Shown here one piece after another: positions 15,584 through 26,006 of a DNA stretch of 64,000 nt. The DNA comes from a virus. Position 1 is the first letter of the stretch. The number at the start of each line of letters is the position of its first letter. The stretch lies in the IMG/VR virus record IMGVR_UViG_3300006149_000007; one strand, written 5' to 3'. The position numbers and the translations under genes were made by a program. The notes beneath the pieces are model-generated. The model ran no database searches. It was not told the origin of the DNA and saw only the letters and a list, made by a program, of their open reading frames with translations.

Positions 15584-15817
15584 ATGATTAAGTATAAAAT
15601 AAATATAGCGGACGCTTTGGAACGTGCGGGATTTAACACATACAAAGCAAAGACGACCAAGCTATTAAGTCAAGATACGCTAAAAAAAATAAAATGCGAA
15701 GATACTAATATATCATTAGAGAGTATCAATCGAATTTGTATGATTTTAGATATGCAACCAAAAGACCTAATAGAGTATGTAGAAAATGAGGAAGAAAAAA
15801 AGAAATATAAATTTTGA
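15584..15817 (+). CDS. small HTH DNA-binding protein (Cro/CI-type)
   Basis: NIADALERAGFNTYKAKTTKLLSQDTLKKIK...SLESINRICMILDMQPKDLIEY. Confidence 0.55.
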   Translation: MIKYKINIADALERAGFNTYKAKTTKLLSQDTLKKIKCEDTNISLESINRICMILDMQPKDLIEYVENEEEKKKYKF

Positions 15818-17221: not shown

Positions 17222-17269
17222 AAAGCAATACATTTGCAAAGTTATACTTTTTTGATATAATATTATTGT

Positions 17270-17340
17270 TAATAGTAATGCATGGCGTGTTGCAATAATA
17301 ACATATAAAGATTTTTTTTAATTAATAGTAGTGCATGGCG
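17270..17340 (+). repeat. 18-bp direct repeat pair
   Basis: TAATAGTA(A/G)TGCATGGCG at 17270-17287 and 17323-17340. Confidence 0.6.
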
Positions 17341-17370
17341 CATTTGTAAATTTCTTTTAAAAAAATATGC

Positions 17371-17399
17371 TTGACAGTTTCCGGAAGTTGTGTTATTTT
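17371..17399 (+). promoter_or_regulatory. sigma-A-type promoter (extended -10)
   Basis: TTGACA, 17-bp spacer, TGtTATTTT. Confidence 0.45.
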
Positions 17400-17665
17400 A
17401 TCTAATTTTTATAATATACTTAAATACTGTATATAATATTATAATATACTAAGAGATATACTATATTTATTGTAATTAATATCTATACAGTAAAACATAG
17501 CATAGTGTATAGTATAAGCCAATACAGTATAGTATACACATATACAGATTATAGAATATACGTTCTTTAAATACACAGTTGACAGATAAATAAATCCATG
17601 GTATAGTTTAAATAATTTAACAGATTTACTTAATTTTTAGGATGGAATTGTAGAGGGAAACTTGG

Positions 17666-17716
17666 AACCCGGATTGTCTAGTCGCTTACTAGGCTTTCCG
17701 GGTTATTTTTATTTTT
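17666..17716 (+). terminator. terminator/attenuator hairpin in leader
   Basis: AACCCGGA/TCCGGGTT 8-bp stem enclosing CTAGT/ACTAG, followed by ATTTTTATTTTT. Lies just upstream of the TerS-like ORF. Confidence 0.55.
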
Positions 17717-17723
17717 AGGCAGA

Positions 17724-18368
17724 TTGGAGGTGTGGGACGTGGAGAAAGTGCAGGAACAGAAGCAAGAGGTATTTGAAAACGATATAGCGTTATATCTCAA
17801 AATGTTTTGTGAGGAACAGAAGATTGAGGATATGCGGACGGCTTCACAAAGCGTCTGGAATGCCGCGTTGATGTATATCAAACGCCATGTATTTAGTGAT
17901 AGTAGTATATTAAAGCTATCTACACCTTTAGAGGGTTATGTAAATAATAATTATACTACAGATAATAATATATATAAATTAAATAACAGTAACTGTAATG
18001 CTTATGATATAGATAAGCTAAATGGTATCTGTGATTATTATATATATATCTGCATGATGTATGATAAAGAGGTATCTGTTATAGGGTTTAGTAATTTGAC
18101 TGGTGTGAGTGATACTGTAATATACGAGTGGGGAGCAGATGACAGCAGAAAGCTAAGCTCTGCGGGTTCGGCTATATACAAAAAACTTAACCAATACCGG
18201 GAGGAAAGCCTATCAAACAAACTCGTAACGGGTAGGCAAAACCCTGTGGGCGTGTTGGGTGTGCTGAATCGGCATTATGCCTGGAATATGCCGGGCGTTA
18301 GGGAGGATAAGAACAGTAAGAGGGTTATATCTGCCGAAGAGCCTATCAGATTGGATGTTAGAGATTAA
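17724..18368 (+). CDS. putative terminase small-subunit-like DNA-packaging protein
   Basis: C-terminal part GFSNLTGVSDTVIYEWG...IYKKLNQYREESLSNKL..GRQNPVGVLGVLNRHYAWN resembles HTH-type TerS proteins. Likely GTG start at 17739. Weak call. Confidence 0.35.
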   Translation: MEVWDVEKVQEQKQEVFENDIALYLKMFCEEQKIEDMRTASQSVWNAALMYIKRHVFSDSSILKLSTPLEGYVNNNYTTDNNIYKLNNSNCNAYDIDKLNGICDYYIYICMMYDKEVSVIGFSNLTGVSDTVIYEWGADDSRKLSSAGSAIYKKLNQYREESLSNKLVTGRQNPVGVLGVLNRHYAWNMPGVREDKNSKRVISAEEPIRLDVRD

Positions 18369-18599
18369 TAATTAAATTGCAACAAATAAATTGTGTAAAA
18401 ATTTAATACAATTATCTCAGTGCAAAGCCTTAAAATCATTTAAATTTTTTACACACAATTATATACAATTTAAAAACCGCATAAAATCAACGTTTTTAAT
18501 AAATAAAAGCTATTTATTTATCGGTTAAGGATTGATTTAACCGATAGAATAGCTTAATTGTCAGAATATTCATAAAAATAGAAACAATAGGGTGGGGGT

Positions 18600-18623
18600 T
18601 ATATAGAACACGTGTTCTATATA
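18600..18623. repeat. perfect 24-bp palindrome
   Basis: TATATAGAACAC|GTGTTCTATATA. Confidence 0.8.
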
Positions 18624-18739
18624 TACTTAGTCCCTTGAACTCCCGTAAAAATAAAAAACCCCTTTATATACTAGTCTTAAAAATTTTTTAAAAATAAAAA
18701 GGCTATATATATTATATATTTCATACATAATTAGAACTA

Positions 18740-18965
18740 GTGACGGTTTTTCTTCGGATGGCAGACAGGTGCATTTGTCAGTAAAGACATACAAAATCCT
18801 ATGCAGTCCTCATAAACATAAATTGGACGGTGGATAGTTGATGTAGTGGGCCAACGCAGGATTAACAGTCATCTTCGCGAGTGTACGGTTCGAATTCGTG
18901 CCTATCTATGCGGTGTAGTAGCACTACACTAGACAGGAGTAAGGCGGTCACTGCCCTGTCGAATC
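18740..18965 (+). ncRNA. candidate structured RNA (unclassified)
   Basis: ORF-free and GC-richer than the flanks. Stems: GTGTAGT-AGC-ACTACAC (18913-18929), GACAGG/CCTGTC (18932-18960) with an inner stem, and a T-arm-like GGTTCGAATTC (18887-18897). Confidence 0.35.
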
Positions 18966-19035
18966 AAAAATAATGCTGGCAGGAACATTCTTTCTGCCAG
19001 ATAAACCGCAAAATGAAGTTAGGAGGGATTTTGAT

Positions 19036-19230
19036 ATGAAATGTTGTAGATGTGGCGATAGTCCAGAAAGTGGAAAAAGTTTTATTCCGATTGATGCGGC
19101 AGGAGCGCCGAACAGAAGATGGTGCTGCACGCAGTGTGCTAATTTGGTTGAAAGACAGCAAGCGAAAAACGCACTCGGAAAAGAGGGAATGGAAATATCA
19201 AGAATGATTGACTCTAAATTTTTGAAATAA
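19036..19230 (+). CDS. small Cys-rich protein
   Basis: MKCCRCGDSPESGK...WCCTQCANL, with RBS AGGAGGG. Confidence 0.4.
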   Translation: MKCCRCGDSPESGKSFIPIDAAGAPNRRWCCTQCANLVERQQAKNALGKEGMEISRMIDSKFLK

Positions 19231-19340
19231 CCTCATAAAAGCCATTTTAACGCTGTACCATATATTTCCTCACAAAAACACAAAAGAGGACGATTTGGGG
19301 CAAATAGGAGTGTTAGGGAGGTATTGAAAGGAGAAATTAC

Positions 19341-19913
19341 ATGAAGAAAATTCCAACACTGTTTGAAAGAGTATATGAAAATCACAAAGTCGTTGACTGT
19401 CTGCCGAATGTAACCACAGGAATGGAATGGGTACTTGAGGGAGAGGGCGTTGCAACGGTCAAAATTGACGGTTCGTGCTGCTCAATCATCAATGGCGAGT
19501 TTTATAAGCGTTATGATGCTAAAAAGGGGCGTAAAGTTCCAGATGGTGCTATTAAGTGTCAAGATGAACCAGACCCGATTACGGGGCATCTGCCTTGTTG
19601 GGTAAAATGTGACAGGGATAACCCGTCTGATAAGTGGTTTTGGGCGGCTTATGATTGCGCAATGATTGATTGTTTGAGCAAATTACAAGACGGAACATAT
19701 GAAGCTATTGGAAAGCATTTTCGCAACAATTCCTACAACATGGATTATGATGTGCTTGTACCACATGGCAGACAGGAAGTAGAGGTTGAACGTACATTTG
19801 AGGGCATAAAGAAGTATCTTTCAGAAAATTACATTGAAGGCATTGTTTTCTGGAAAGATGGACAACCTCAATGCAAGATAAAGAGGTCGGATTTTAGATT
19901 TGACTGGAAATAG
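19341..19913 (+). CDS. minimal ATP-dependent RNA (or DNA) ligase-like nucleotidyltransferase
   Basis: Motif I is VKIDGS (KxDG), motif IV-like is EGIVFWK, motif V-like is CKIKRSDF. 190 aa. Confidence 0.6.
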   Translation: MKKIPTLFERVYENHKVVDCLPNVTTGMEWVLEGEGVATVKIDGSCCSIINGEFYKRYDAKKGRKVPDGAIKCQDEPDPITGHLPCWVKCDRDNPSDKWFWAAYDCAMIDCLSKLQDGTYEAIGKHFRNNSYNMDYDVLVPHGRQEVEVERTFEGIKKYLSENYIEGIVFWKDGQPQCKIKRSDFRFDWK

Positions 19914-19919
19914 TTTCAA

Positions 19920-19991
19920 GGCGATATAGCCAAACGGTCAAGGCGGCAGTCTGCAAAACTGCTATTATCAGTTCGATTCTGATTATCGCCT
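19920..19991 (+). tRNA. tRNA-Cys: tRNA-Cys (anticodon GCA)
   Basis: Acceptor GGCGATA/TATCGCC. D-arm contains GG. Anticodon stem GCAGT/ACTGC with loop CTGCAAA. T-arm ATCAG-TTCGATT-CTGAT. No encoded CCA. Confidence 0.85.
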
Positions 19992-20096
19992 TTATAACGG
20001 ACTAGACAAAGCTAGTCGAAAAGCAAAAAACTCCGTAACTTGCCTGTCCGTTATTCAAATAAATTTACGGAGAGAAAGCATTGCGGAGGTGCGAAT

Positions 20097-21131
20097 ATGG
20101 ATTTTAGAAGCTTATTTATAGACAAAGATAAAATTGTAATGGCAAATATGGAACTGGGAGTTGCACTCAACAGCCTTGACGAAGCAATAGTGCTTAATCA
20201 GTTAAATTACTGGATTGAACGCAATAAAGACGCAAATAGGAATTTCCGAGACGGTCATTACTGGGTATATAATTCATACGAAGCGTGGAAAAAACAAGAT
20301 TTCCCTGTTTGGTCTGCAACAAAGATTAAACGGATATTTACAAGCCTTGAGGGGAAGGGGATTGTTTTATCTGCAAATTACAATAAACTTGCCATTGATA
20401 AAACAAAGTGGTACACGATTGATTATGACAAATTAAAAAAGTTTATTGAAGAATACTCGAAAGGTCAAAATGAAACACCGACAGACCAAGATGAAATATC
20501 GAAAGACGCTGATGACCAACCGATAGACCAAAATGACCAGACGTTAGACCAAAGTGAAAGAGCATTACCAGATACTAACTACAGAGATTATTCTACAGAG
20601 AATACTAACAGAGATTTACATACAGATACTACAAAGGATAAAACATTATCTAACGATAATGGAGAGGTAAAAACATCTTCTTCTGAAAACCGAAAGAAGA
20701 TGTCCGTACCAAAAACCGCCTTAGAAAAATATTTCGGCAAAAAAGCAGATGAACAGGACATGATGAAGCGGCTTGCCGATATCTGCATATCCAACTATGA
20801 CGAGGAAACCGCAAAAGATATATTTGAAACCATAGAGCATTATTTTAGGCGATATACTGACAAGACGGGGCTGATACACCCAATACTGAAAGATGAAACT
20901 CTTATACGCATAACAGAGAAAATGGATTGCTTTTATGATAGCGAATATTCACATTTTGAACGCCTGATAGGACAAGACCATGCTTTTATGAAAATGGTTG
21001 ACATGTTCTTTGACGGAGATTTTGGGGCGGTTAAGGGAAACGAAACGAATTATCATCTCCCTGCATTTATGACAGACGGAGTTTTGAATCGATTAGGGCA
21101 AAGGTTGTTTGAGTTAGGGGAGGTAGAGTGA
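20097..21131 (+). CDS. second replication-initiator-like protein (winged-helix N-terminus)
   Basis: LNQLNYWIERNKDANRNFRDGHYWVYNSYEAWKKQDFPVWSATKIKRIFTSLEGKGIV. The acidic linker carries iterons. ATG 20097 follows GGAGG. Confidence 0.5.
   Translation: MDFRSLFIDKDKIVMANMELGVALNSLDEAIVLNQLNYWIERNKDANRNFRDGHYWVYNSYEAWKKQDFPVWSATKIKRIFTSLEGKGIVLSANYNKLAIDKTKWYTIDYDKLKKFIEEYSKGQNETPTDQDEISKDADDQPIDQNDQTLDQSERALPDTNYRDYSTENTNRDLHTDTTKDKTLSNDNGEVKTSSSENRKKMSVPKTALEKYFGKKADEQDMMKRLADICISNYDEETAKDIFETIEHYFRRYTDKTGLIHPILKDETLIRITEKMDCFYDSEYSHFERLIGQDHAFMKMVDMFFDGDFGAVKGNETNYHLPAFMTDGVLNRLGQRLFELGEVE
20483..20552 (+). repeat. iteron cluster, 5x (A/T)GACCA(A/G)
   Basis: Copies at 20483, 20513, 20525, 20534 and 20546, inside the linker of the Rep-like gene. 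Confidence 0.5.
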
Positions 21132-21132
21132 T

Positions 21133-21657
21133 ATGGCTTACAGAAGTCCAGAAGAACAAGTAAGTAAAAAATTACGAGAAAAGATTTTGAAAAGGGATAA
21201 TTACACTTGCAAATATTGTAGGAAGAAATTTCCTGCTGAAGATTTACAGATAGACCATATCAGACCTGTTTGTTTAGGCGGCGATAACAGAGAAAGCAAC
21301 TTAACAACTGCTTGCTGGAAGTGTAATAACGAAAAGGGAACAAATTTAATGCCGGAATTAGAAACGGAAGAAAACAAGAGAGATTTTGACGAGAGATACA
21401 GACAAAAAGTAAAAAATTATGGATATTATACGAATTACATCAAGAAAGTATTTGTTTCAAGCGGTGTGGACTGCCTTATGTTGTCAAGACCGCAAATTAA
21501 TAGATATGTTAAAGCAAATATAAAAAACGATGAAGATTTTGAAAATTTCAAAATAAAGTTGAAAGAAATCGGAGCAGGTGGAATGAAAAAGGAATTTCTT
21601 AGATTTTTTGCAAGCGAGAGCAGAAAAAGGCTGAATAGTAGGAAAAAATCGGTATAG
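21133..21657 (+). CDS. HNH endonuclease
   Basis: CKYCRKKF...DHIRPVCLGGDNRESNLTTACWKCNNEKG. Confidence 0.85.
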   Translation: MAYRSPEEQVSKKLREKILKRDNYTCKYCRKKFPAEDLQIDHIRPVCLGGDNRESNLTTACWKCNNEKGTNLMPELETEENKRDFDERYRQKVKNYGYYTNYIKKVFVSSGVDCLMLSRPQINRYVKANIKNDEDFENFKIKLKEIGAGGMKKEFLRFFASESRKRLNSRKKSV

Positions 21658-21751
21658 AAATGACGGAGAGATTGTATTGAGTTTCCCACACTTTATGTCT
21701 GACACGATACGAGGAAATTTAGCAAATAGGCTTTGGAAGTAGGGAGGTAGT

Positions 21752-21985
21752 ATGATGTGTGAATTTTGTAAAGATATATGCAAACTTAAAAGAATAGATA
21801 ATCAGCATTTCAAAGGCTATTACCCAAAAGAAAATATAACACAGATTGTTCAGGACAAAGACGGAAAATTCCATATATGGTTTGATGGATTCGGAAATTG
21901 TTTTCAATGCGGAATAGACATTGAGGATATTAAGTTTTGTCCAAAATGCGGCAGGAATTTGACGGAGGTATCAACCCATGACTAA
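21752..21985 (+). CDS. small zinc-ribbon protein
   Basis: CEFC...CFQC...CPKC. Confidence 0.4.
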   Translation: MMCEFCKDICKLKRIDNQHFKGYYPKENITQIVQDKDGKFHIWFDGFGNCFQCGIDIEDIKFCPKCGRNLTEVSTHD

Positions 21986-22030
21986 AACCGAACTACTCTC
22001 AACCTACACAGCGGAAAGGAAAATAAAGCC

Positions 22031-22756
22031 ATGAACATATCAGACATTCAGAAATGCCAAGAGGAATACGAGAAAGTTTTGAAAGAAAGCCCTCTTAATG
22101 GAACAATAGATAAAATCTGCAAAGATATTCTTGAACAGAAAAATAATGCTATGGCAATGGAATTTACAAGGATAATCTCCGACTTGCTGAAAAGATACGG
22201 TGTGTATTTGCATTGCACGGAAACCAAATTTGGACGGAAGATAACCACAAATTCCATTGAAGAAAAATATGGGATTGTATTTGACAGCATGGACTTCTCA
22301 CAACATGACAAAGAATTTACGGATAAAATCGAAGAATTACAATCCGAAGTCAATCACTACCGCAAATCCTTTGAGGACGCAAAGAAAGAGCGTGACTGCC
22401 AGATTGCGGAGTATCAGAACAGAACCGAAAAGGATAAAACAGAACTAGAAAGAGCCAAAAACACCATAAACCAGATTGATAATATTCTGGAAAAGTTATT
22501 CGGTGTTCGGCATGATGTTGGAAAGCCAGATGAATTTGAAAAGATTTTGGCTGATAGAGCAAAAGGCAATGCTTCTGATTTTCTACCGGCAGAACCTATA
22601 AAAGTTGCGGATATGTTGATAAACGTAATGTGTGAGCCGTGTGCAAGCGTATTATCGTTTGGAAAGCCATATAGCATGTATGATATGTCAGAGTTAAGAC
22701 AGATTGCGGAACATTTGCTTGTGTATTGCAATCATAACGAGGAGGTAGGAGAATGA
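22031..22756 (+). CDS. hypothetical protein (central coiled coil)
   Basis: 241-aa ORF. Confidence 0.5.
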   Translation: MNISDIQKCQEEYEKVLKESPLNGTIDKICKDILEQKNNAMAMEFTRIISDLLKRYGVYLHCTETKFGRKITTNSIEEKYGIVFDSMDFSQHDKEFTDKIEELQSEVNHYRKSFEDAKKERDCQIAEYQNRTEKDKTELERAKNTINQIDNILEKLFGVRHDVGKPDEFEKILADRAKGNASDFLPAEPIKVADMLINVMCEPCASVLSFGKPYSMYDMSELRQIAEHLLVYCNHNEEVGE

Positions 22757-22947
22757 GTTTATCAACAGTAATTCAGAGCATAGAGCGAGAAATGTTTGAC
22801 AGGGCGACAAAAAGAAACTGCGGAAACTGTAAATGGTGGGCAGATAATGAAGTTTGTGTAAATGGGGATTCAGAACAGGTTGCGGATTTTACAGACAAAG
22901 ACTTTTCTTGCGACCACCACGAATTTAAGGAGAGTGAAGAAGCATGA
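22753..22947 (+). CDS. small Cys-containing protein
   Basis: ATGA overlap with the upstream gene; 64 aa. Confidence 0.4.
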   Translation: MSLSTVIQSIEREMFDRATKRNCGNCKWWADNEVCVNGDSEQVADFTDKDFSCDHHEFKESEEA

Positions 22948-23090
22948 GTAAACGAGAATTAAAACTTCATCTTGAAGAAAAATTAGAGGAAATTAGCGAA
23001 ATCTTAGACAAAGGAAACGACTGCGAACTCCGCGCATCTCCTAATGGCGTGGCTGTCATTAAGGTCAAAAAGGAGGTTGTGTCAAAATGA
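22944..23090 (+). CDS. small hypothetical protein (48 aa)
   Basis: ATGA coupling at both ends. Below the ORF-track cutoff. Confidence 0.3.
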   Translation: MSKRELKLHLEEKLEEISEILDKGNDCELRASPNGVAVIKVKKEVVSK

Positions 23091-23248
23091 TTATTGTAAA
23101 TTGTCCACATTGTGGAAAACAACATGTGTTACTGCCTGATGAAATTGAAAGATTGTTTAGGGGAGGAAAAGTGGTAATTACAGAATGTTCATGCGGTCAT
23201 ATGTATACTGTTGAACAGGGAGACGATTGCTATTTTACAAGTAAGTGA
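23087..23248 (+). CDS. small zinc-ribbon protein (53 aa)
   Basis: CPHC...CSC. ATGA coupling to the upstream ORF. Confidence 0.3.
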   Translation: MIIVNCPHCGKQHVLLPDEIERLFRGGKVVITECSCGHMYTVEQGDDCYFTSK

Positions 23249-23255
23249 GGTATAT

Positions 23256-23681
23256 ATGAAAGTAATATTTCTTGATGTAGACGGAGTATTGAACCACGGA
23301 AAACAAATAGAAAAAGTGGAAGATGATAAAATAGGACTCCTAAATCAGATTGTCAAGGCGACAAATGCAGAAATAGTTCTATCTTCTGATTGGCGTTATT
23401 GGCTCAATACAGATGATGAAGATGTGATACTTTTGGAAAGGAAATTAAGCAGTGTTGGCATAGATATTATGTCAAGTACACCCATAACAAAACATGGGTA
23501 TAGAGGGGCAGAAATATACCAATGGATAAACGAATGGAATGGAGAACAGATTGAAAAATTTGTAATTCTTGATGATAGAGATGATATGAAGCCATATATG
23601 AATAGATTGGTTCAGACATCTTTTGATTTAGGATTGCAAGAAAAGCATGTTAAAAGAGTAATACAATTATTAAACGAATAA
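23256..23681 (+). CDS. HAD-superfamily phosphatase-like protein
   Basis: Motif I FLDVDGVLN, then LSSDWR and a late ILDDRDD. This pattern resembles HAD domains seen in RNA-repair proteins. Confidence 0.6.
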   Translation: MKVIFLDVDGVLNHGKQIEKVEDDKIGLLNQIVKATNAEIVLSSDWRYWLNTDDEDVILLERKLSSVGIDIMSSTPITKHGYRGAEIYQWINEWNGEQIEKFVILDDRDDMKPYMNRLVQTSFDLGLQEKHVKRVIQLLNE

Positions 23682-23744
23682 AATATCTAAGGCTTACCCG
23701 AAGCGTGGGTAAGTATCAAACCGAAGTGTGGTTTTTCTTTTAAG

Positions 23745-25550
23745 TTGGAAGAAAGGAGGACTGCGCTTTTGTCTTTAGAACTTCAAAAAGCCATATCTGG
23801 CTATGAATCCTATATTGAGAAAAAAGGTTATACATACGAAGTGGCAAATGCCTACCATAATGCCGTGTTCTTTGCATCCGAAAAGGATAACGATTTGCAA
23901 GAAGCATTAAAAATATCTATCAGGGCGAAAGAAGTATTAAATCAATTCTGCGTAAATCAGTATAAAGGCGACATATGGGAGCTTGAAAAATTCTGTTTTG
24001 CCAACAAGACAGGGCATGAAATGGTGGATAAGTGGTATGAGATATTGAAGTTGGAAGCTCCGTATAAGTTTGAGAGTTTTATTTACTACATGGAGAAAAA
24101 CAGACCGTATGCAAAGCGGTTTTATCTTCCGAGAAGAAATCCTATGAAAATAGTTGTCAGTGACCTACAGGATTTAGAGGATAGGACAAGTGGTAAAAAA
24201 TTCTATGGTTTATCCATGCCAAGCCGTGTTGGAAAGTCCACTGACTGTATATTTTTTCTTTCGTGGATAGCCTTAAAACGCCCAAACAGTCACTCTGCTA
24301 TGGGTGGACACTCTGGAATACTTGCGAAAGGATTTTACAAGGAACTGATGAACCTAATCGCAACGCCAGAGTACACATTTAAAGAATTATTCGATTATCT
24401 GCACCCAGAATATCAAAATAGACCATTTCTGACAGATAAGAGTGCGGACGAATTTACAATCACATTGGGAGACTCAGACCGATTCGCAACAATCACTTGC
24501 CGAGGAATTGATGGAACATGGACGGGGGCTATTGACGTATCAGAGGACGGTTATCTGTATGTGGACGACCTTGTAAGGGACAGGCAGCATTCATTAAGTC
24601 CCCGAAGAATGGAAGAAACCTATCAAGAGTACCTAAACAAGATGGTTGACCGTAAAAATGATGGGGCAAGGGAGCTTATGGTAGGTACTCTATGGAATGT
24701 ATTAGACCCGTTGGAACGAATAAGAAAAGAGGAAAAAGACAATCCAAAGTATGGATTTAGAAAAATTCCTGCCTTAAATGAGAAAGATAAAAGTAATTTT
24801 GCTTATGAGATAAACGGATTTTCCACAAAATATTATCACGAAATGAGGGATAGGCTCGATAAAGCAGAGTGGATGGCTAAATTCATGCAGCAGCCGTTTG
24901 TAAGAGAGGGATTATTATTCCCGACAGATGAATTACAATTTTTTAACGGAATATTGCCAGACGGAGATTTTCGGATTGTTGCGGTAGTTGACGTAGCCTG
25001 GGGCGGCGGCGACAGCTTATCAATGCCAATCGGTGCAGAATATGAAAGTGGAGACGTATATGTGTTTGCATGGGTATTTAACAAAGGGGCAAAAGAAGTC
25101 ACATTACCACTTGTGACAGGGCAAATCATAAACAACCGCATAAGACAGATACGGTTTGAGGGAAACACGGGCGGAGATTTGTACTGCAAATATGTTGATG
25201 AAATGTTGCAAAAGCAAGGGTGGAAATGTAGCTGCACACACAGAAAAGCACCTAACACTATGGAGAAAATGTCCAAAATTATAGCATATTCGGGAGATAT
25301 AAAGAGAAAGTATCATTTTCTGACTTCAAAGATACCAACGCAAAAAGAACGAGAGAGGGATAATGAGTTAGGCATTGTTCGGTATGTCAGAGATAAAGAA
25401 TATCAAGATGCTATGGACGAACTGGAAACCTTTGTAACGATAGGAAAAAACGACCACGAAGACGCAGCAGACGGATTAACACAGCTTGAAATGTTTATAG
25501 AAAATCCGGGCGGAATAAGGCAAACAATCATAATGCCAAGCCCAATCTAA
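23745..25550 (+). CDS. terL: terminase large subunit
   Basis: Walker A-like SRVGKST and Walker B-like YLYVDDLV. C-terminal nuclease region carries acidic motifs. True start may be TTG 23769, after AGGAGGA. Confidence 0.85.
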   Translation: MEERRTALLSLELQKAISGYESYIEKKGYTYEVANAYHNAVFFASEKDNDLQEALKISIRAKEVLNQFCVNQYKGDIWELEKFCFANKTGHEMVDKWYEILKLEAPYKFESFIYYMEKNRPYAKRFYLPRRNPMKIVVSDLQDLEDRTSGKKFYGLSMPSRVGKSTDCIFFLSWIALKRPNSHSAMGGHSGILAKGFYKELMNLIATPEYTFKELFDYLHPEYQNRPFLTDKSADEFTITLGDSDRFATITCRGIDGTWTGAIDVSEDGYLYVDDLVRDRQHSLSPRRMEETYQEYLNKMVDRKNDGARELMVGTLWNVLDPLERIRKEEKDNPKYGFRKIPALNEKDKSNFAYEINGFSTKYYHEMRDRLDKAEWMAKFMQQPFVREGLLFPTDELQFFNGILPDGDFRIVAVVDVAWGGGDSLSMPIGAEYESGDVYVFAWVFNKGAKEVTLPLVTGQIINNRIRQIRFEGNTGGDLYCKYVDEMLQKQGWKCSCTHRKAPNTMEKMSKIIAYSGDIKRKYHFLTSKIPTQKERERDNELGIVRYVRDKEYQDAMDELETFVTIGKNDHEDAADGLTQLEMFIENPGGIRQTIIMPSPI

Positions 25551-25565
25551 AGGAGGATTGCATAC

Positions 25566-26006
25566 ATGACAACCAAGGAATATTTATCTCAAATAAGTAG
25601 ACTTGACCGCATGATAAAAAATAAGCTGACAGAATTGGCACAGTTAAAGGAATTATCATACGGATTATCCGCCATACCAAACGAAGAAAGAGTGCAGACA
25701 ACACCTAACCACGACAAAATCGGTACAGCGTTTTGTAAAATAGAATCAATGGAAGAAAGTATTGATAAACTGATAGATGAATATGTGGATAAGAAAAATG
25801 AGATAATCTCACAAATTGACAGCATGGAAGATGAAACACATTATGATGTCCTATTTTCAAGATACATAGAAAAAAAGACTTTTGAAAAAATTGCTACGGA
25901 TATGCACTACTCATTCCGAAACACAACAAGGTTGCATGGCAGGGCATTGCAGGAATTTGAAAAGAAATATGGAGAATTATATCTTGAAAGTGAAAATGTG
26001 TCCTAG
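25566..26006 (+). CDS. sigma-70 region-4-like phage transcription regulator (DUF1492-like)
   Basis: C-terminal YDVLFSRYIEKKTFEKIATDMHYSFRNTTRLHGRALQEFEK is an HTH of sigma r4 type. Confidence 0.5.
   Translation: MTTKEYLSQISRLDRMIKNKLTELAQLKELSYGLSAIPNEERVQTTPNHDKIGTAFCKIESMEESIDKLIDEYVDKKNEIISQIDSMEDETHYDVLFSRYIEKKTFEKIATDMHYSFRNTTRLHGRALQEFEKKYGELYLESENVS

Follow-up and report, generated by a model that had tools for sequence, protein, structure and literature searches.

The large RNAs ROOL and GOLLD occur in phage tRNA islands, and the linkers of GOLLD can hold tRNAs (PMC5737381). In IMG/VR virus record IMGVR_UViG_3300006149_000007, of which a stretch of 64 kb was analysed (the window; all positions are given in its numbering), the region 18369-19035 had been put forward in a preliminary description as a candidate for an RNA of this kind, a single unit of ~600 nt, with a replication origin, a cos site or a leader RNA as the alternatives. 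In MALAT1/mascRNA and in mitochondrial tRNA punctuation, RNase P and RNase Z cleave at a tRNA-shaped element embedded in a longer transcript; what these two enzymes recognise is the acceptor stem, the T arm and the elbow. In the reading that we favour, with moderate confidence, the region is a composite, in which an AT-rich spacer is followed by a shrunken tRNA-island unit of leader, decayed tRNA-like element and trailer, and the unit would punctuate the operon RNA through RNase P and RNase Z. From sequence comparison, this unit (18775-19035) appears to be a reduced form of the tRNA island which related Lachnospiraceae phages carry at this place.

The relatives used for comparison were IMG/VR gut viral contigs and metagenome-assembled genomes (MAGs) of Lachnospiraceae/Clostridia, with loci labelled by L-numbers; a search of GenBank phage DNA in near and distant modes gave no DNA relative of the window. 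As described at the outset, 18369-18947 is free of any open reading frame (ORF) of at least 60 aa (the only ORFs there are of 45 aa on the + strand and 55 aa on the - strand), and its 5' part is AT-rich, with 23% GC in 18369-18740 vs ~36-47% in the flanks. The single ~600-nt unit did not hold, as the AT-rich 5' two-thirds have no homologue except for a block of 73 nt, and the conserved part is modular and only ~260 nt long. The 3' part is of normal GC content (39-46%) and has the stems ascribed to it, GTGTAGT-AGC-ACTACAC (18913-18929) and GACAGG/CCTGTC (18932-18960), together with the tRNA-T-arm-like GGTTCGAATTC at 18887-18897; as one piece, however, 18730-19035 folds no differently from shuffles (z = -1.1 on the + strand, -0.7 on the - strand). 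What stands of the earlier interpretation, which is partly supported overall, is a 3' half that is conserved, structured and RNA-like, with a tRNA-like T arm in a phage tRNA neighbourhood, but not one large RNA.

The window and nine sets of relatives were scanned with all 4227 Rfam families, both at gathering score and with a limit of E<=10; the searches of the locus at E<=10 covered 18200-19400 (1.2 kb) and 18740-19040 (301 nt). ROOL, GOLLD, HEARO and tmRNA, for which such a check had been proposed, are excluded, no family matching the region at either threshold in the window or the relatives. ROOL (RF03087) was without match at gathering score in the window, at E<=10 on the locus, and in the relatives, while GOLLD (RF01998), whose definition includes a 3' domain of ~400 nt with pseudoknots and E-loops, gave no model match in any of the scans. 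For HEARO, YrlA and other families only chance-level matches were seen in the locus (snoR11, K10_TLS, ceN54, serC; E ~1-10), and for tmRNA neither Rfam nor ARAGORN, at default or at -ps80 on the window segment, returned a match. Apart from a 12-bit alignment to cow-rumen-3 RNA, the window and its relatives yielded only tRNAs, int-alpA RNA and unrelated ribozymes.

The leader, a module of 56 nt, is built of two hairpins, A (18776-18779 with 18786-18789, loop AGTAAA) and B (18799-18803 with 18811-18815, loop CAGTCCT), which are joined by the linker ACAAAATCC (AAAAUCC in RNA) and followed by ACATAAATTGGACGG (in RNA ACAUAAAUUGGACGG). It is 92-97% identical to the leaders of L081, L198, L302 and L303, loci in which the neighbouring protein is just 30-60% identical, and over 18775-18832 the identity to L198 is 96.6%. 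In an alignment (A1) of 24 distinct sequences, four of the five pairs of hairpin B have both partners changed (CUAUG/CAUAG, CUGCA/UGCAG, CCGCA/UGCGG), 97.7% of the cells pair, and the observed values were reached by none of 500 shuffles. Hairpin A is invariant across the same 24 sequences, which is in part ascertainment, many loci having been fetched with that motif. A covariance model of the leader (R1) scored 70.5 bits at 18775-18830 and had no other site in the window; in an unbiased set of 80 loci, 33 full copies were found by covariance model, plus nine with only hairpin B and the A-rich tail. Applied to 80 loci fetched through the RNA ligase, R1 gave zero matches, so the leader motif is tied to the clade of the terminase-like gene upstream and not to the ligase. 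A scan of the genome collection returned ~28 matches vs ~35 estimated by chance, the real ones being six Clostridia/Lachnospiraceae MAG loci. Four cyanobacterial MAGs (L240, L255, L261, L262) have TTGTCAGTAAAGACATTAAAATCC followed by a GC hairpin, CCCCC-GGACT-GGGGG, in the layout of the phage leader and without a neighbouring tRNA, L255 having in addition domain V of a group II intron at 2.8 kb downstream; these loci may be a chance match or a distant relative.

The tRNA-like element that comes next is degenerate. Its acceptor strands TGGATAG and CTATCTA pair at 7/7 positions, the T arm TACGG-TTCGAAT-TCGTG has 5/5 pairs and a loop that fits TTCRANY, and the D loop contains GG (AGTGGG); an extra base stands between the T stem and the acceptor stem, and no CCA is encoded. 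In the fold given by ARAGORN the D stem has 2 bp and the anticodon stem two mismatches around the loop TTAACAG, with an alternative anticodon arm of a 5-bp stem and an 8-nt loop. Only the acceptor/T-arm "minihelix" and the features of the elbow are kept intact. ARAGORN calls the element at the 80% threshold only, as "tRNA-Val(aac)", and at default reports tRNA-Cys alone, not 18831-18909; the Rfam tRNA model (RF00005; 29 bits needed) had no match in the locus at E<=10, the 301-nt search included. In the 64 kb of the window, searched on both strands, the combination of a perfect T arm and a 7/7 acceptor stem has just two sites, this element and tRNA-Cys. Of 19 distinct relatives, 15 (or 16, if L252 as read by eye is counted) also have a cassette at this distance from the leader, 48-251 nt long and closed by a 7-bp acceptor stem together with a canonical T arm; ten or so different acceptor sequences occur among these cassettes, each of them complementary. 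The cassette of L088 is a bare minihelix of 48 nt, acceptor stem and T arm only, that of L300 is a tRNA by ARAGORN at default, and that of L248 reaches 42.6 bits on the Rfam tRNA model. Cassettes have been swapped between the same flanks: where the window has ~96 nt between leader and trailer, L198/L301 has a different tRNA-like element of ~200 nt instead.

The trailer starts 1-6 nt past the 3' end of the tRNA or tRNA-like element in every type of locus, and in L302 and L141 it follows canonical tRNAs. Three hairpins make it up: H1 (18912-18919 with 18923-18930), followed by TAG, H2 (18932-18937 with 18955-18960, GACAGG/CCUGUC, with an inner stem) and, after an A-rich linker (18961-18975), H3 (18976-18985 with 18991-19000). 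With a minimum free energy (MFE) of -37.9 kcal/mol (z = -4.5) it is more stable than any of 200 shuffles. The trailer is 96% identical to those of L198 and L301 and 91% to that of L302, and 18929-19033 corresponds to L198 7692-7796 at 96.2% identity. The RNAalifold consensus consists of the same three hairpins, with five H1 pairs changed on both sides; other clades have differing H1 and H2 stems in the same layout, and L302 has a long apical insertion within H3, the stem being kept. A closing helix, TGCGGT (18909-14) with ACCGCA (19005-10), is tentative: the MFE fold of the window has it, and so do L248 and L300, but L198 and the alifold consensus lack it. An exact-pattern scan of IMG/VR for the trailer identified L198 as the sole true homologue, the other 35 matches being due to chance. 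In the window, L198 and L248 the trailer runs directly into a conserved Shine-Dalgarno sequence and ATG, and the downstream ORFs differ, with a 121-aa ORF in L198 and L248 where the window has one of 64 aa that matched no protein family. Among the alternatives originally named, a leader RNA comes closest, for 18909-19035.

Loci with a relative of the terminase-like gene have, 3' of that gene, a tRNA array (Gln, Tyr, Glu, Arg, Ser, Trp, Met), and the window matches these loci in short blocks only. For the 3' half the closest relatives are L198/L301, L300, L248 and L302; L300 aligns over 18775-19014 with 76% identity, and an extra tRNA of this locus is inserted between duplicated ATAAACC segments. 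From the terminase-like gene to the leader the relatives have 2.7-5.7 kb, with ORFs, canonical tRNAs and a 5' RNA module of 240-290 nt, where the window has ~400 nt of AT-rich sequence. In this module a covarying stem P1 (CCCCG/CGGGG, CCUCA/UGAGG, CCCCA/UGGGG, CCCAC/GUGGG) surrounds UAGCGGAAUGCUGUUAAG and a small hairpin. It was seen in L198 (7185-7432), L113 (4858-4960), L248 and L300, usually directly after tRNA-Gln or tRNA-Ser, and is not in Rfam; a search of the window for its motif and its possible 3' partner found neither. Pistol and type II hammerhead ribozymes and RAGATH-27 RNA occur in related phages (L081 2491-2556, L136 2092-2159, L238 2005-2073 and L248 5971-6054, all on the - strand), RAGATH-27 lying within the tRNA array of L248; none is present in the window. 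Two independent contigs, L137 and L149, start within 2 nt of each other (positions 1-20 of each, CGCAGGATCACCGGCAGG), at a distance of 342 nt on the 5' side of the terminase-like gene. A physical end of the genome (cos) may lie there; many other contigs carry this sequence internally.

The stretch 18369-18774 is an AT-rich, largely non-conserved spacer after the small-terminase-like gene. In its first part, 18369-18589, for which no DNA homologue was found in GenBank phages or fetched relatives and at whose position relatives have only a small hairpin, the 49-nt hairpin that had been noticed (18508-18556) is present and very stable (-21.4 kcal/mol, z = -7.2, with none of 200 shuffles equally stable). 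The long-range inverted repeat reported along with it exists in imperfect form (18389-18404/18442-18460, fold z = -2.2 vs shuffles), its second arm at 18442-18460 and not at 18462, which was 20 nt off. Only the clade-conserved block at 18590-18662 is common to relatives. It is composed of a G-run, GGGTGGGGG (18590-18598), a variable middle and then CTTAGTCCC..AAAAATAAAAAA (18626-18658), which in the comparison with relatives reads CUUAGUCCC...AAAAAUAAAAAA 3' of the variable middle. By blastn it is 81-84% identical over 43 nt to L141, L130 and others, and it sits ~200 nt 3' of the homologous gene in ~60 distinct relatives, in which the ORFs after it differ. The perfect 24-bp palindrome at 18600-18623, likewise confirmed, is the variable middle of the block in the window, and it is significant, as arms of 12 nt were reached by only one of 2000 dinucleotide shuffles of the AT-rich part. 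Conceivable roles of the block are a DNA site to which a protein binds or a sequence that marks the boundary of a module. An RNA fold for it was discarded, the G-run/C-run pairing being unsupported, with uncompensated changes and an inconsistent alifold, and so was a repeated phage promoter in its part made of TTTCCTCA and the A-rich sequence, of which the window has just two copies. A sequence similar to the 3' part of the block, TTTCCTCACAAAAACACAAAAG, is found in the intergenic leader 5' of the RNA ligase gene (19239-19325), where conservation with L198 and L300 is 82%. The remainder, 18663-18774, is window-specific filler that, compared with L198 and L300, stands in place of the 2.7-5.7 kb described above; its sigma-70-like site, TTTAAA-17-TATTAT at 18687-18715, scores 9 of 12, and the whole region is not above chance.

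As to how the unit might work, near-consensus sigma-70 promoters were located by a promoter scan at 17233, 17371 and 17579, within the ORF-free region 17222-17723 upstream, and 18369-19035 has no terminator-like site, so the segment is most likely part of an operon transcript, co-transcribed with the flanking genes from strong promoters at 17233-17607. The anatomy, the conservation, the covariation and the exchange of cassettes are observed, and we infer transcription, cleavage and stabilisation of the segment. The cassette family keeps an RNase P/Z substrate while the decoding part decays or expands, and punctuation is therefore proposed as its role; the assignment to the RNase P/Z class is suggested by the intact acceptor/T-arm minihelix and the missing CCA. 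RNase P would cut after the leader, at ~18830/18831, and RNase Z just past the discriminator, at ~18908-18909, no CCA being encoded, and the tRNA-like element would in this manner split the operon RNA. The leader hairpins would be left capping the 3' end of the upstream RNA, and the trailer hairpins would be left at the 5' end of the downstream mRNA, shielding it from exonucleases such as RNase J1 of a Firmicute host. A parallel exists in the window 1 kb downstream, where tRNA-Cys, also without CCA, is followed by int-alpA RNA and then by an RBS (ribosome-binding site) and an ORF.

Several observations weigh against this punctuation. Neither the leader nor the tRNA-like element folds better than shuffles, hairpin A is dispensable in some relatives, and in type A loci the leader is joined to the trailer with no tRNA-like element between them. 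The strong conservation of hairpin A and the linkers, in part a matter of ascertainment, is not explained by a simple role as an end cap, and the covariation comes from few independent lineages. As the window is without the 240-290-nt 5' module of the relatives, its copy may also be a non-functional remnant.

Other explanations were considered. That leader, swappable cassette and trailer, together with the 5' module of the relatives, constitute an undescribed modular RNA family of phages in Lachnospiraceae tRNA islands, with a purpose beyond processing, is a real possibility, if not a likely one. A tRNA-shaped scaffold would then carry variable inserts of up to ~170 nt, as a decoy for host defences which target tRNA or as a vehicle to present or stabilise small RNAs, and the conserved hairpins would recruit a specific partner. 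The most interesting alternative, to which we give less credence, is a new large modular phage noncoding RNA in the manner of GOLLD, with a 5' domain, a tRNA or tRNA-like linker and a 3' domain, of which the window would have a copy truncated at its 5' end; leader and trailer would then belong to a single folded RNA that has its own function, such as scaffold, cage or decoy. Such an RNA would accommodate the 5' module with its covarying P1 upstream of the leader in the relatives, the span of ~400-900 nt from that module through the trailer, and the setting in tRNA islands shared with ROOL and GOLLD, whose linkers, in the case of GOLLD, can hold tRNAs (PMC5737381). It is harder to reconcile with the missing Rfam match to ROOL or GOLLD, with the absence of the 5' module from the window, and with the independence of the modules, L238 and L243 having the leader without this trailer and the trailer following ordinary tRNAs in L141 and L302; nor is any long-range pairing between the modules supported. 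The flanks could also act at the level of DNA, as homology arms for the exchange of tRNA cassettes by recombination, the RNA structure being incidental, and we regard this as improbable. It would account for flanks which are 96% identical around unrelated cassettes, for the many kinds of cassette at one junction, for the extra tRNA of L300 between its duplicated ATAAACC segments and for the 18590-18662 block, which likewise precedes different ORFs in different relatives. Yet the compensatory changes in hairpin B and H1 preserve pairing, the stability of the trailer (z = -4.5) points to selection on RNA, and the elements are always on the transcribed strand, beside tRNAs.

A different view, that 18831-18909 is a working if unusual tRNA (for instance Val-AAC, or one that suppresses frameshifts by an anticodon loop of 8 nt) and its flanks the ordinary leader and trailer of a precursor, is in our judgement quite improbable. 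The acceptor stem, the T arm and the GG of the D loop are intact, ARAGORN makes its call at relaxed settings, and the sister cassettes of L300 and L248 pass standard tRNA detection; but the element fails both the Rfam tRNA model at E<=10 and ARAGORN at default, and it has a D stem of two pairs, two mismatches in the anticodon stem and the extra base between the T and acceptor stems. Anticodons with A34 are atypical in bacteria, and this counts against it too, as do sister cassettes of 48 and 113-251 nt, which cannot decode. Least probable of all is a replication origin or packaging site (cos/pac) formed by the AT-rich half (18369-18774) and the palindromes in it. The stretch has no ORF, is rich in AT, contains a long hairpin and a perfect palindrome that is significant, and lies directly after the small-terminase-like gene and 1.3 kb before the DnaD-like initiator gene, and yet only its 73-nt block is conserved. 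Iterons are lacking, there being only weak 11-nt repeats (18617-18713), and the cumulative GC skew makes no turn at 18369-18774, whereas tandem repeats of 21 nt and 14 nt lie in the initiator gene at 20458-20631. These repeats (21 nt x 3.8 and 14 nt x 2.8 copies) are candidate origin iterons, cf. the lambdoid O genes; the origin proposed in the preliminary description is not supported. The cos site fares no better: no contig of a relative ends here, and the possible physical ends of relatives map upstream of the preceding gene, two contigs having their start not downstream of the terminase-like gene but 342 nt on its 5' side. An HNH gene and the large terminase (TerL) gene, with an uncharacterised 156-aa ORF just before the latter, are moreover found at 21133-25550. 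An origin, a packaging site and a giant RNA are all disfavoured for this region of the window.

The features of the locus and its surroundings are compiled in Table 1. Nearly all genes of this phage segment lie on the + strand, and at gathering score tRNA-Cys and int-alpA RNA are the only Rfam matches of the window. An RNA ligase gene and a tRNA gene had been noted downstream, and both are there, with the 64-aa ORF preceding the ligase. The DNA-binding proteins of the phage include, besides the TerS-like protein, a repressor-like one of 77 aa (15584-15817) and a regulator of 146 aa (25566-26006). The product of 17724-18368 is probably a small-terminase-like protein, judging by weak, near-full-length matches to the P22 gp3 family from this product and three of six diverged homologues. 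Its gene has an AT-rich insert of low complexity, rich in Asn, at ~17900-18100 (23.5% GC). Upstream, 17222-17723 is a second ORF-free region with 19-31% GC and a 20-nt tandem repeat at 17507-17547, which is 80-85% conserved with L198 and L300 although the adjoining coding sequence is not conserved. Further downstream, int-alpA RNA begins two bases after tRNA-Cys and is followed by an RBS and the likely ATG (20097) of the DnaD-like gene, whose listed TTG start (20040) would fall within the int-alpA motif; a tRNA followed by int-alpA RNA is also present in L037 and L248.

Table 1. Positions and properties of features in and around the locus.
Feature	Position	Strand	Remarks
TerS-like gene, 214-aa ORF	17724-18368		directly upstream of the locus; 5.4 kb upstream of TerL
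AT-rich spacer	18369-18589	.	holds inverted repeat and 49-nt hairpin
Clade-conserved boundary block	18590-18662	+	73 nt; G-run, variable middle, A-rich part
Window-specific AT-rich filler	18663-18774	.	weak sigma-70-like site
Conserved two-hairpin leader ("core")	18775-18830	+	56-nt module 5' of tRNA-like element
Degenerate tRNA-like element	18831-18909	+	acceptor stem and T arm kept
Conserved three-hairpin trailer	18909-19012	+	H1, TAG, H2, A-rich linker, H3
RBS AGGAGGG	19021-19027	+	directly 3' of trailer
Cys-rich ORF, 64 aa	19036-19230	+	ATG at 19036
RNA ligase, 190 aa	19341-19913		phrog_14301, E = 9e-55
tRNA-Cys	19919-19992		without encoded CCA
int-alpA RNA (RF02996)	19995-20070		40.1 bits
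DnaD-like initiator	20040-21131		listed TTG start at 20040
HNH endonucleases			encoded in window; HNH gene and TerL within 21133-25550
Large terminase (TerL)	23745-25550		uncharacterised 156-aa ORF immediately 5'
Portal protein			encoded in window

Annotation of phage tRNA islands usually goes one gene at a time and ignores what tRNA detectors miss. In the present case, intergenic DNA that seemed empty holds conserved, covarying hairpin modules and tRNA-shaped cassettes of varied size, none of which is in Rfam. If the cassettes are punctuation, the phage would use host tRNA enzymes to cut and stabilise pieces of a long late transcript; if they are scaffolds or decoys, they would be a new kind of phage RNA alongside ROOL and GOLLD. 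For the window itself the practical lesson is a modest one; the region here is a copy that is reduced and may be vestigial.

Of the Rfam models, cow-rumen-3 RNA (RF03083) alone gave an alignment in the leader region of a relative, at L198 7348-7490. This alignment has AUACUAGUU, a hairpin with a CAGUA loop and an A-rich linker in common with the model, and it stops exactly at the end of the leader; its score, however, is 12.3 bits (E = 4; gathering score 86.7), many of its pairs are non-canonical, and it was not reproduced on the window or L113. We treat it as a chance match or, possibly, a very remote lead, and a literature search for cow-rumen-3 or comparable tRNA-like cassettes of phages found nothing. 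The likeness to int-alpA RNA is one of layout, that of a structured RNA directly after a tRNA and before an RBS and ORF, as in the trailer, whereas sequence and fold are different and the trailer does not match the int-alpA model. With ROOL and GOLLD the locus has in common the context of a Firmicute phage beside tRNAs and, as regards GOLLD, an architecture, though no more than that, of 5' module, tRNA-containing linker and 3' module in the relatives, within a tRNA island. It differs in that the conserved part in the window is ~260 nt long vs 580-800 nt, that the modules occur independently, and that the unit has shown no multistem junctions or pseudoknots. With MALAT1/mascRNA and mitochondrial punctuation the proposed logic would be identical, structured elements capping the new ends; those systems are eukaryotic or organellar, whereas the cleavage in the phage is a proposal, and a triple-helix element is missing here.

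Closest in kind are the tRNA islands and pseudo-tRNAs of phages. The element of the window stands at the position of the arrays of its relatives (Gln, Ser, Tyr, Arg, Met and others), and, like other tRNA-like genes of phages, it keeps the acceptor stem, the T arm and the GG of the D loop, without CCA, as is the case for the tRNA-Cys of the window. It departs from them in failing standard tRNA detection, in being flanked by specific conserved hairpin modules, and in having sister cassettes with inserts, up to 251 nt, or reduced to a minihelix of 48 nt. What is new, then, are RNA motifs uncatalogued in Rfam, and the kinds to which they belong, phage tRNA-like elements and structured leader and trailer RNAs, are already known.

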